A stretch of DNA of 64,000 nucleotides from Escherichia coli (GTDB lineage: Bacteria > Pseudomonadota > Gammaproteobacteria > Enterobacterales > Enterobacteriaceae). The translations under genes were made by a program, and so were the position numbers. Below, piece by piece: positions 36,574 to 59,780 of the stretch (the stretch's first letter is position 1; the number at the start of each line of letters is the position of its first letter). A model generated the notes under the pieces. The model saw only the letters and a list, made by a program, of their open reading frames with translations. It did not search any database and was not told where the DNA came from. The DNA is taken from NCBI RefSeq assembly GCF_003334785.1, contig NZ_QOWV01000002.1, one strand, 5' to 3'.

Positions 36574-36606
36574 TGTTACAGGGCAGAAATTTCCTGTCCT
36601 GTAACA
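36574..36606 (+). terminator. Hairpin directly after fruA
   Basis: TGTTACAGG...CCTGTAACA forms a 9-bp outer stem followed by TTTG, 10 nt after the stop. Confidence 0.6.
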
Positions 36607-43396: not shown

Positions 43397-43488
43397 GCCT
43401 GATGCGCAAGCTTATCAGGCCTACATTTACTTGCTGAAATTGCCTGATTTGTAGGCCGGATAAGACGCGTTAAGCGTCGCATCCGGCA
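43397..43488. repeat. BIME after nupX (two REP units)
   Basis: GCCTGATGCGCAAGCTTATCAGGCCTACA (43397-43425) and TGTAGGCCGGATAAGACGCGTTAAGCGTCGCATCCGGCA (43450-43488). Confidence 0.88.
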
Positions 43489-44585: not shown

Positions 44586-45443
44586 TCAGGCTACCGCTTT
44601 TTCAGTTTGTTGCGCTTTCAGCCAGGCGATCTCTTCTGCCCAGATATCCGGGTTGATGGTTTCGAGGATCAGCGGAATGCCGTCGAAACGGTCGTCCTGC
44701 ATGATCCAGCGGAACGCATCATGACCGATATTGCCTTCACCGAGGCTATGATGGCGGTCAACGCGGCTGCCAAAGGTGCTTTTCGCATCGTTAAGGTGCA
44801 TCCCGCGCAGATACTTAAAGCCGACAGTACGGGCAAAATCCGCGAATGTTTTCTCGCATTCGGCTGGAGTACGCAAATCATACCCGGCAGCGAAAGCATG
44901 GCAGGTATCAATGCAGACGCCGACGCGGGATTTATCTTCCACGCCGTCGATAATCGCCGCGAGATGTTCGAATTTAAACCCTAAGTTACTGCCCTGACCG
45001 GCGGTGTTTTCTATCACCGCTGTCACACCTTGAGTTTTATCCAGCGCAATGTTGATGGATTCGGCAATACGCGCAAGGCAATCCTCTTCTGAAATCTGCA
45101 TCAGATGGCTGCCAGGGTGGAAGTTGAGCAAAGAAAGCCCCAGCTGTTCGCAACGCTGCATTTCATCTATAAAGGCATCGCGCGATTTTTCCAGAGCTTC
45201 AGTGACCGGATGTCCGAGGTTAATCAGATAACTGTCGTGGGGAAGAATTTGCGCCGATGTGTAGTGATATTTTTCACAGGCGGCTTTGAATTCATCGATG
45301 GTTTGCGTCGTGAGCGGTGCGGCACGCCACTGACGTTGGTTTTTGGTGAACAAGGCAAACGCGGTTGCGTCGATTTCGGCGGCGCGAATTGCGGCATTTG
45401 CCAGACCGCCAGCAGCACTAACGTGCGCTCCAATGTATTTCAT
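44586..45443 (-). CDS. nfo: Endonuclease IV
   Basis: 285-aa TIM-barrel AP endonuclease. Recognised sequence [21 protein letters not shown]... Confidence 0.96.
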
Positions 45444-45516
45444 GCGAGGACTCCTGTTAAACCCGCTGGAGGAAAACGGTAATGATAGCGGGTTAACAGG
45501 AGCAAGATGTAGTGGT

Positions 45517-46566
45517 TTATGCGATGACGCTTTGAATCACATAGTTAATCGCACCACCACCAACAATCAGCCAGGCAAACAGTACCAGTGCCATCAGCAG
45601 AGGTTTCGCCCCAGCTTTTTTCAGCGCGCTGACGTGAGTGGTCAGACCCAGCGCCGCCATCGCCATTGCCAGCAGGAAGGTATCCAGCGTTACCAGCATG
45701 TTCACCACGCTCTGCGGTAACAGGTGGAACGAGTTAAAGATGGCAACTACGATGAACAAGATGGCAAACCACGGAATAGTGATTTTGCTTTTCTCGCCGC
45801 TGTTCGCCCCAGACAGCTGTTTAACACGCGCCGCCAGCAGGATGAGGAACGGAGCCAGCATCATCACGCGCAGCATTTTGGAAATAACTGCTGCGTTTTC
45901 CGCATCCGGGCTGATGGCATGACCTGCCGCCACCACCTGCGCCACTTCGTGCACAGTAGAACCAATGTAGATACCGAAAGTTTCCGGACTAAACCATTGA
46001 GACATCAGCGGATATATCGCCGGGTAGAGGAAAATCGCGACGGTCCCGAAGATAACAACGGTTGCAACAGCCACGGTTACTTTACTGGCTTCCGCTTTCA
46101 CTACCGGCTCAGTCGCCAGTACCGCGGCAGCACCACAGATACTGCTACCGGCACCGATCAACCAGCTGGTGTGCTTATCCAGACCAAACACTTTCTGCCC
46201 CAGGAAGCAAGCCAGCAGGAAGGTACTGGACAGCGTCAACACGTCAATGATGATCCCACTGATACCGACATCGGCAATTTGCGAGAACGTCAGACGGAAG
46301 CCATAAAGAATGATACCCAGACGTAATAAATATTGCTTGGCAAACAGCACACCACCGTCACAGCTTTTCCAGATGTGCGGATAGATGGTGTTGCCTAAAA
46401 CCATCCCCAACAAGATTGCGAGGGTGAGGGCACTAAACCCGGCACCCGCAACCGCGGGAATGGAACCACCCCACAGGGCGACCCCGGTGATAACTGCACT
46501 CAGGGCTAACCCCGGAATAAAATGCCACAGTGTACGATGTTGTTTCTGTAAGGTGATATTCGTCAT
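45517..46566 (-). CDS. yeiH: UPF0324-family inner membrane protein YeiH
   Basis: 349-aa polytopic ORF, divergent from the LysR gene yeiE. Confidence 0.9.
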
Positions 46567-59598: not shown

Positions 59599-59780
59599 TG
59601 TAGGCCGGATAAGGCGTTCACGCCGCATCCGGCAACAGGAGCCAAATGCCGGATGCAACGCTGGCGCGTTTTATCCGGCCTACAATAAGCTCAACATACT
59701 GATTTGTATGGTTTTGTAGGCCGGATAAGGCGTTCAAGCCGCATCCGGCGACAGGAACCAAATGCCGGATGCGTCTCTGG
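59599..59780. repeat. BIME cluster: four REP units arranged as a ~116-bp tandem duplication
   Basis: TGTAGGCCGGATAAGGCGTTCA[C/A]GCCGCATCCGGC[A/G]ACAGGA[G/A]CCAAATGCCGGATGC occurs twice, starting at 59599 and 59716. Confidence 0.9.

Follow-up and report, generated by a model that had tools for sequence, protein, structure and literature searches.

A conserved hairpin enclosing the nfo transcription start at the yeiH-nfo junction, a candidate insulator against read-through transcription

The closest known analogue of the structure described here is found in the insertion sequences IS10 and IS50, where one arm of a fold-back structure lies upstream of the element's own transcription start site (TSS) and the other covers the ribosome-binding site (RBS); only transcripts from outside are silenced and the element's own mRNA stays open. 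Davis, Simons and Kleckner reportedly found in 1985 that read-through transcripts of IS10/Tn10 fold back over the transposase ribosome-binding site, which gives protection from external promoters. A passage in PMC13181058 presents the translation signals of IS10 as sequestered in secondary structure and cites Davis, Simons and Kleckner (1985). The left end of IS200 carries a terminator against impinging transcription together with a stem-loop that sequesters the Shine-Dalgarno (SD) sequence (PMC4513863).

We describe a hairpin between yeiH and nfo (endonuclease IV) of Escherichia coli which resembles IS10/IS50 in logic, yet is no member of the IS systems. As in IS10/IS50, the two arms are placed upstream of the gene's TSS and over its RBS, respectively. 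The insertion sequences guard a transposase, whereas here protection of a stress-inducible DNA-repair gene is proposed by analogy, and the 5' arm is embedded in the spacer of an activator-dependent promoter. The junction also shares with IS200 a shielding at two levels, in that a single hairpin appears to combine both roles in Enterobacter-type relatives; IS200, in contrast, uses two separate hairpins, and its SD stem lies within its own 5' UTR and represses all transcripts, while nfo's own transcript would escape. Intrinsic terminators are similar in the GC-rich base of the stem, in the U-tract that is found in many relatives, and in the position, immediately behind a stop codon where two co-directional genes under different regulation meet. 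Unlike them, the E. coli copy has no U-tract, encloses the -10 and the TSS in a loop of 19 nt, and has a 3' arm that contains the SD of the next gene. A literature search found no paper that describes the yeiH-nfo hairpin.

We take nfo to be a known member of the mar/sox/rob regulon and a textbook SoxS-regulon gene, whose promoter, presumably of class II, has been studied for decades. The promoter, the TSS and the SoxS site of nfo are no new elements; they are already known. With its box, the distance of this box from the -10 and a poor -35, the promoter conforms to the mar/sox/rob type in which the activator box overlaps the -35; nfo differs from these promoters in having a spacer that is also the 5' arm of an RNA hairpin.

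Layout of the yeiH-nfo junction and the nfo promoter

The junction was analysed in a stretch of 64,000 nt of E. coli DNA (the window), to which all coordinates refer. When 2.3 kb around the site were used as a query, they were 100% identical to K-12 MG1655 and matched yeiE, yeiH, nfo and yeiI. All features described below are on the minus strand. The yeiH gene (45517..46566, from the ORF and the annotation) ends in the stop codon TAA at 45517..45519, which confirms the stop that an earlier note on this DNA had placed at 45517, and the nfo coding sequence (44586..45443) begins with the ATG at 45443..45441. The spacer between the two genes is 73 nt long and reads, on the minus strand, ACCACUACAUCUUG CUCCUGUUAACCCGCU AUCAUUACCGUUUUCCUCC AGCGGGUUUAACAGGAG UCCUCGC, followed by AUG. 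The earlier note had described a hairpin of 16 bp with one bulge and a 19-nt loop, and each of its coordinates was found to be correct when checked against the sequence. The 5' arm CUCCUGUUAACCCGCU (45487..45502) begins 15 nt downstream of the yeiH stop codon, the 19-nt loop AUCAUUACCGUUUUCCUCC occupies 45468..45486, and the 3' arm AGCGGGUUUAACAGGAG (45451..45467) contains one bulged U, which is the minus-strand form of the bulged A that had been noted on the plus strand. The 3' arm is part of the nfo 5' UTR and ends in the nfo SD, AGGAG (45455..45451); as had been claimed, this SD is separated by 7 nt, the spacer UCCUCGC, from the ATG at 45443.

The nfo 5' end has been mapped at -29 from the start codon (Mendoza-Vargas 2009, Table S1, HTPS(454), frequency 3; PMC2760140), which corresponds to a TSS at ~45472 (45443 + 29 = 45472) with an uncertainty of a few nt. 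The mapped site comes from three reads of one 454 dataset, its start base is a C, and its distance of 9 nt from the -10 is rather long; even with an error of several nt, the nfo start falls 3' of the whole 5' arm. Because the TSS lies inside the loop, nfo's own mRNA does not contain the 5' arm, as the earlier note had anticipated for a transcript starting there. The note had also considered an nfo TSS upstream of 45502, with which all transcripts would carry both arms; the mapped TSS (PMC2760140) lies downstream of this position. The sigma-70 -10 given for the mapped TSS is GCTATCAT (PMC2760140; acccGCTATCATtacc in Table S1), and it corresponds to TATCAT at 45482..45487, the element that the note had singled out as -10-like. 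Its placement in the loop was right for five of the six bases, since the first T of TATCAT is the last base of the 5' arm. A site in the yeiH>nfo spacer has also been reported from genomic SELEX with the RpoD holoenzyme (PMC3946193). A scan for consensus promoters returned a single site, which spans the start codon and is irrelevant here.

Upstream of the -10, a predicted SoxS/MarA/Rob box, TCATCGCATAAACCACTACATC (45506..45527), is given as the SoxS site of the nfo promoter in supplementary file 6 of PMC2760140, and it overlaps the yeiH stop codon. The hairpin 5' arm fills the spacer between this box and the -10. Compared with the marbox consensus AYnGCACnnWnnRYYAAAY (PMC3709825), the sequence at 45507..45525 has two mismatches, and it lies 19 bp upstream of TATCAT. 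The marbox pattern does not occur above chance in the window (17 matches compared with 18 expected), and the match gains meaning only from where it lies and from the published site. The nfo strand has no other marbox-like site in the approximately 1 kb before nfo, and the one present keeps a fixed distance to the -10 of the mapped TSS downstream. All aligned Enterobacteriaceae have the TAT and the last T of the -10 in common (TATCAT, TATGAT or TATACT, and one TATTAT), and TATCAT/TATGAT also occurs in Erwiniaceae. An E. coli-like metagenome locus (L087:524-603) has TATGAT for TATCAT in an otherwise identical junction, which is the same alternative as is found between genera.

Transcription of the upstream gene was described by Kim et al. 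(2012), who reported a yeiH TSS 17 nt upstream of the yeiH start (NC_000913.2 position 2247722, about 46583 in the window) and a divergent yeiE TSS; yeiH was weakly expressed there (13 reads). The same data contain no TSS for nfo under the conditions of that study, and an nfo entry is absent from the supplements of SMRT-Cappable-seq and Cappable-seq.

Stability, conservation and covariation of the hairpin

By itself the hairpin has a predicted energy of -23.3 kcal/mol. In a context of 106 nt it is the dominant structure of a fold of -32.6 kcal/mol (z = -4.69), and none of 200 shuffled sequences was equally stable. When 60-nt windows on both strands of the 64-kb window were ranked by energy, the best one over the hairpin came 143rd out of 31,970, and only a handful of inverted repeats of this length are present in the window, REP-like elements among them. 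By energy alone the hairpin is strong, not unique; conservation and covariation put it beyond chance, and chance is excluded because of these comparative data from 31 distinct sequences and not because of energy.

Among the strongest hairpins of the window are REP-like inverted repeats with GCCGGATAAG / CTTATCAGGCCTACA motifs at 43411-43464 (downstream of yeiI) and at 59660-59776. Near-perfect 16-nt palindromes with 1-nt centres are found at 10125-10157 and 36574-36606 (TCGCTAACTGATTTAT/ATTAATCAGTTAGCGA and TGTTACAGGGCAGAAA/TTCCTGTCCTGTAACA) and could be operators or terminators. The yeiH-nfo hairpin was not found to be a dispersed multi-copy consensus of the REP/BIME type: it has one copy in the window, and the REP-like repeats sit elsewhere. 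A search of the hairpin against Rfam gave no family match.

For the comparison, 80 nfo loci (one genome per species) and 80 nfo loci from metagenomes were sampled; individual loci are referred to by their L numbers. Salmonella and Klebsiella were not identifiable among the sampled nfo loci. Throughout the Enterobacterales in this sample, yeiH lies directly upstream of nfo and in the same direction. In the Enterobacteriaceae the spacer between the two genes is 66-109 nt long, with AACCCGC-TAT(C/G)AT as a nearly invariant motif. In a MAFFT alignment of 18 species, 86% of the cells were paired according to the E. coli structure, and this dropped to 34-52% when the pairing partners were slid by 1-3 columns. 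Six pairs were changed on both sides in this alignment, compared with 1.8 in shuffled alignments (0/500). A covariance model built from it had one match in the window and, in the 80 loci, matched only the site upstream of nfo. In the alignment fitted by the model, which favours the structure by construction, 31 distinct Enterobacteriaceae sequences were 87.3% paired compared with 81.4 in the shuffles (0/500) and at most 51% when slid, and double-sided changes occurred in 17 cells and 7 pairs (3.7 and 3.1, respectively, in the shuffles).

Several individual changes are compensatory. L095 (CUCCAGUUAAGCCGCU / AGCGGCUUUAACUGGAG) has two double changes, one of them within the otherwise invariant inner helix, and it has this inner C-G to G-C flip in common with L092. 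A U-A to C-G change is found in L020, with L017 as the U-G intermediate, while U-A has become G-C in L003 and A-U in L007 and L009. Despite their differing architectures, 28 of the 31 variants have a hairpin energy of -20 to -27 kcal/mol. The hairpin is in this sense real, as the earlier note had held, with both conservation and covariation in the 31 distinct sequences from Enterobacteriaceae.

All 5426 complete E. coli genomes (5426/5426) carry the junction at a single chromosomal locus. Its 95-nt sequence is at least 99% identical in 5256 of these, compared with 3229/5426 for the surrounding 2.3 kb, and 170/5426 genomes differ somewhere in the 95 nt. One variant, that of the ST80 strain Es_ST80_L1_NDM_10_2017 (L081), has a 2-nt deletion (TG) in the 5' arm, equivalent to window positions 45497-45498, which shortens the stem and the spacing between the SoxS box and the -10 alike. 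This rare variant was dropped as uninformative.

Accessibility of the nfo Shine-Dalgarno sequence in two RNAs

Pairing of the nfo SD was predicted in silico for RNAs with different 5' ends. When the RNA begins 60-180 nt upstream, within yeiH, the hairpin is intact and the SD is unpaired with a probability of 0.002, compared with 0.64 when the RNA begins at 45478-45472. The predictions agree with the two effects proposed in the earlier note, namely that a read-through RNA with both arms would occlude the nfo RBS and that an RNA started in the loop would have a usable one, the latter as far as accessibility alone is concerned. The same contrast was found in 13 species (<0.05 compared with 0.45-0.93), in which at most 5% of the controls with shuffled upstream sequence were as occluded. 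In the order of its parts along the RNA (5' arm at 45502..45487, TSS at ~45472, 3' arm with AGGAG at 45467..45451), as well as in a predicted RBS that is open in the gene's own transcript and closed in read-through RNA, the junction follows the fold-back of IS10/IS50; it is not part of a mobile element with a transposase gene and belongs to the core chromosome.

Occlusion of the SD was partial in L003, L006, L007, L010, L013, L016, L024 and most Erwiniaceae, where the inner stem alone or a different hairpin is formed. The primary nfo transcript has no unusual structure, and an alternative fold of this mRNA, in which CCAGCGG in the 5' UTR pairs with codons 11-13, was discarded since it is no stabler than shuffled sequences (z = -0.82). 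In the Erwinia/Pantoea loci L026, L040 and L029, the hairpin sequences are unrelated to those of E. coli (for example UGAUGACCUGC...GCAGGUCAUCA in L026), and in the predicted fold the SD is again paired with stretches of pyrimidines that precede the -10. The same design may have arisen here independently.

The earlier note had proposed that the structure insulates nfo translation from yeiH read-through, an idea whose structural basis is borne out. To the reading that the hairpin acts in RNA, and specifically in read-through transcripts, to insulate nfo from transcription out of yeiH, we give slightly better than even chances. Its 5' arm would then be housed in the spacer of the SoxS-dependent nfo promoter and its 3' arm in the nfo 5' UTR with the SD, leaving the -10 and the TSS to the loop. 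An mRNA from the nfo promoter would start at ~45472 without the 5' arm and have an accessible SD. An RNA that crosses the yeiH stop codon would contain both arms and form a hairpin of about -23 kcal/mol in which the SD is buried. Translation of yeiH should not melt this structure: given the usual coverage of mRNA downstream of a ribosome, a stem that starts 15 nt past the stop codon should be just outside the footprint of the terminating ribosome and hence not be reached by it. In E. coli, nfo would then probably remain untranslated from read-through RNA, and by established polarity rules such untranslated RNA would be open to Rho-dependent termination; trimming of its 3' end back to the hairpin would leave a stable 3' stem-loop. 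In many sister genera, the hairpin with a U-tract directly behind it would also terminate yeiH transcription intrinsically. We infer both the read-through from yeiH and its effects on translation and termination. We know of no obvious disadvantage to the cell if Nfo were made from read-through RNA.

Terminator-like forms of the hairpin and other explanations

The hairpin could instead be primarily a 3'-end element of yeiH, either an intrinsic terminator or a stem-loop that blocks exonucleases, built around the nfo promoter, with the overlap with the SD as a by-product of the 73-nt spacer; we hold this to be possible, if rather doubtful. It is favoured by the sequences that follow the stem in other genera. 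In many relatives the GGAG at the base of the stem runs straight into a U-tract, which doubles as the spacer between SD and AUG. This tract is U8 in L095, U7 in L020 and L092, and U6 in L017 and L091; the tail is UCUUUUU in L023 and L102 and UUUUCU in L003 and L004, and in L009 GGAG is likewise followed by a U-rich tail. Species with a weak outer stem (L013, L016 and L094) have purine-rich spacers instead. In many sister genera the hairpin probably also acts as the intrinsic terminator of yeiH, judging from these sequences. E. coli itself fits this explanation less well. A GC-rich, stable stem (-23.3 kcal/mol) does stand directly after the upstream gene, 15 nt past the yeiH stop, but it is followed by UCCUCGC with 2 U in 7 nt, and the loop of 19 nt (15-17 nt between the arms in Enterobacter-type sequences) is larger than the about 3-8 nt of an intrinsic terminator. 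A terminator scan called nothing at the E. coli hairpin, and the stem is intact in E. coli, L002, L008, L014 and L019 though a good U-tract is absent. The supplements of an E. coli 3'-end study (PMC7815308) contain no 3' end of yeiH or nfo, an absence that speaks weakly against a 3'-end element as yeiH is poorly expressed.

A variant of Citrobacter/Kluyvera type (L001, L012, L088, L090 and L011) has a 14-16-bp hairpin with the -10 (TATACT) inside the 5' arm. The variant has no AGGAG; in the junctions of L001, L012, L088 and L090 (about 70 nt upstream of nfo), only GGCGGG and an A/U-rich spacer stand before the nfo ATG. Because this variant keeps a strong hairpin without AGGAG, pairing with the SD may not itself be the selected feature, and the variant likewise counts in favour of a 3'-end element. 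In Kluyvera sp. 142359 (L011:2300-2500), the conserved hairpin (2264-2302) is separated from the nfo ATG (2501) by an insertion of about 180 nt. Part of this insert (GTTCACCCCAGTCACGTACTGAAGTACGCTCCCGGGGATT, preceded by ...CAAGTTGCAGGCGCGTTGGCCGCGCTCG) may resemble an ERIC/IRU repeat; a comparison of the insert with Rfam gave sub-threshold matches only.

Other Enterobacterales families also have a terminator at this junction, again as would be expected of a 3'-end element. Yersinia, Proteus, Providencia, Moellerella and Edwardsiella have a longer spacer with a canonical terminator 50-90 nt upstream of the ATG, before a CATAAT -10, and in Serratia (L030) a terminator-like hairpin was recognised by eye and not called by the scan. 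That the canonical terminator of these families is upstream of the nfo promoter indicates that insulation at this junction is the rule and apparently a conserved need, for which the Enterobacteriaceae would use a hairpin placed around the core of the promoter. The terminator stem of Edwardsiella (CCCUGUUAACC / GGUUAGCAGGG) has 10 nt in common with the E. coli arms, a resemblance that agrees with a 3'-end element. In Edwardsiella ictaluri (L043:2392-2445), the canonical yeiH terminator is GCACCCUGUUAACC-UAU-GGUUAGCAGGGUGU followed by U5, its stem shares CCUGUUAACC with the E. coli arms, and the nfo promoter (CATAAT) lies downstream of it. From these sequences, the E. coli hairpin may go back to a terminator of the L043 type, and the shared stem sequence CCUGUUAACC suggests descent from an ordinary terminator on compaction of the spacer. 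We tentatively consider a 'wrap-around' insulator, a proposal about as doubtful as that of a plain 3'-end element: the yeiH terminator hairpin would have evolved to enclose the nfo -10 and TSS in its loop, and one stretch of DNA would serve as terminator and RBS mask for incoming transcripts and as open leader for the resident promoter.

Descent from a terminator also allows for a neutral relic with no present function in E. coli. The loss of the U-tract in E. coli and the resemblance of its arms to the Edwardsiella terminator are consistent with such a relic, which we nevertheless regard as unlikely: pairing has been maintained by compensatory changes in several lineages, the junction is nearly invariant over 5426 E. 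coli genomes, and the hairpin energy stays in a narrow band.

Still less probable is an inverted repeat that acts at the DNA level, as the operator of a dimeric regulator bracketing the -10 and +1 or as a cruciform that modulates the promoter. The arms do flank the core promoter, and Watson-Crick covariation alone cannot tell pairing in DNA from pairing in RNA. The mismatches, 36 G-U compared with 12 A-C (20 compared with 12 without the closing pair), favour the sense strand, but this asymmetry is weak. The distance between the conserved arms is a better guide. It is species-dependent, with about 14-52 nt in the loop or apical part, while nearly all of the 31 aligned sequences run without gaps from the end of yeiH and the SoxS box as far as the -10. 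Such variation is incompatible with the fixed geometry of two half-sites and fits RNA pairing, as an RNA stem tolerates any loop; on this ground the DNA operator was rejected. Also consistent with RNA are the U-G intermediates (L017) and the U-G pair that closes the stem in 16 of the 31 sequences, and the arms change by compensation (L095, L092) and keep no motif.

That both arms are present in all nfo mRNAs through a TSS further upstream, as a constitutive or signal-responsive repressor of translation (a thermometer, or the target of an sRNA or protein), would account for the full in silico sequestration of the SD when both arms are there, but is hardly credible given that the TSS mapped at -29 lies in the loop and not upstream of both arms as in an SD-sequestering 5'-UTR regulator, that the marbox-like site sits where the -35-overlapping activator site should be for this TSS, that a thermometer would need a much less stable stem, and that Rfam holds no match.

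For the biology of nfo, an insulating hairpin specific to read-through transcripts would mean a deliberate separation of nfo output from yeiH, a gene that has a TSS of its own and is presumably under the control of YeiE. The 73-nt junction nests an activator site, a promoter, a leader and the proposed insulator together. A conserved hairpin whose 5' arm is the promoter spacer would put this spacer under a dual constraint, of promoter geometry and of RNA pairing. The wrap-around arrangement, if general, would offer a design principle for junctions that are very short and join co-directional genes under different regulation. If the insulator reading is true, a mechanism known from insertion sequences would extend to a core chromosomal gene.
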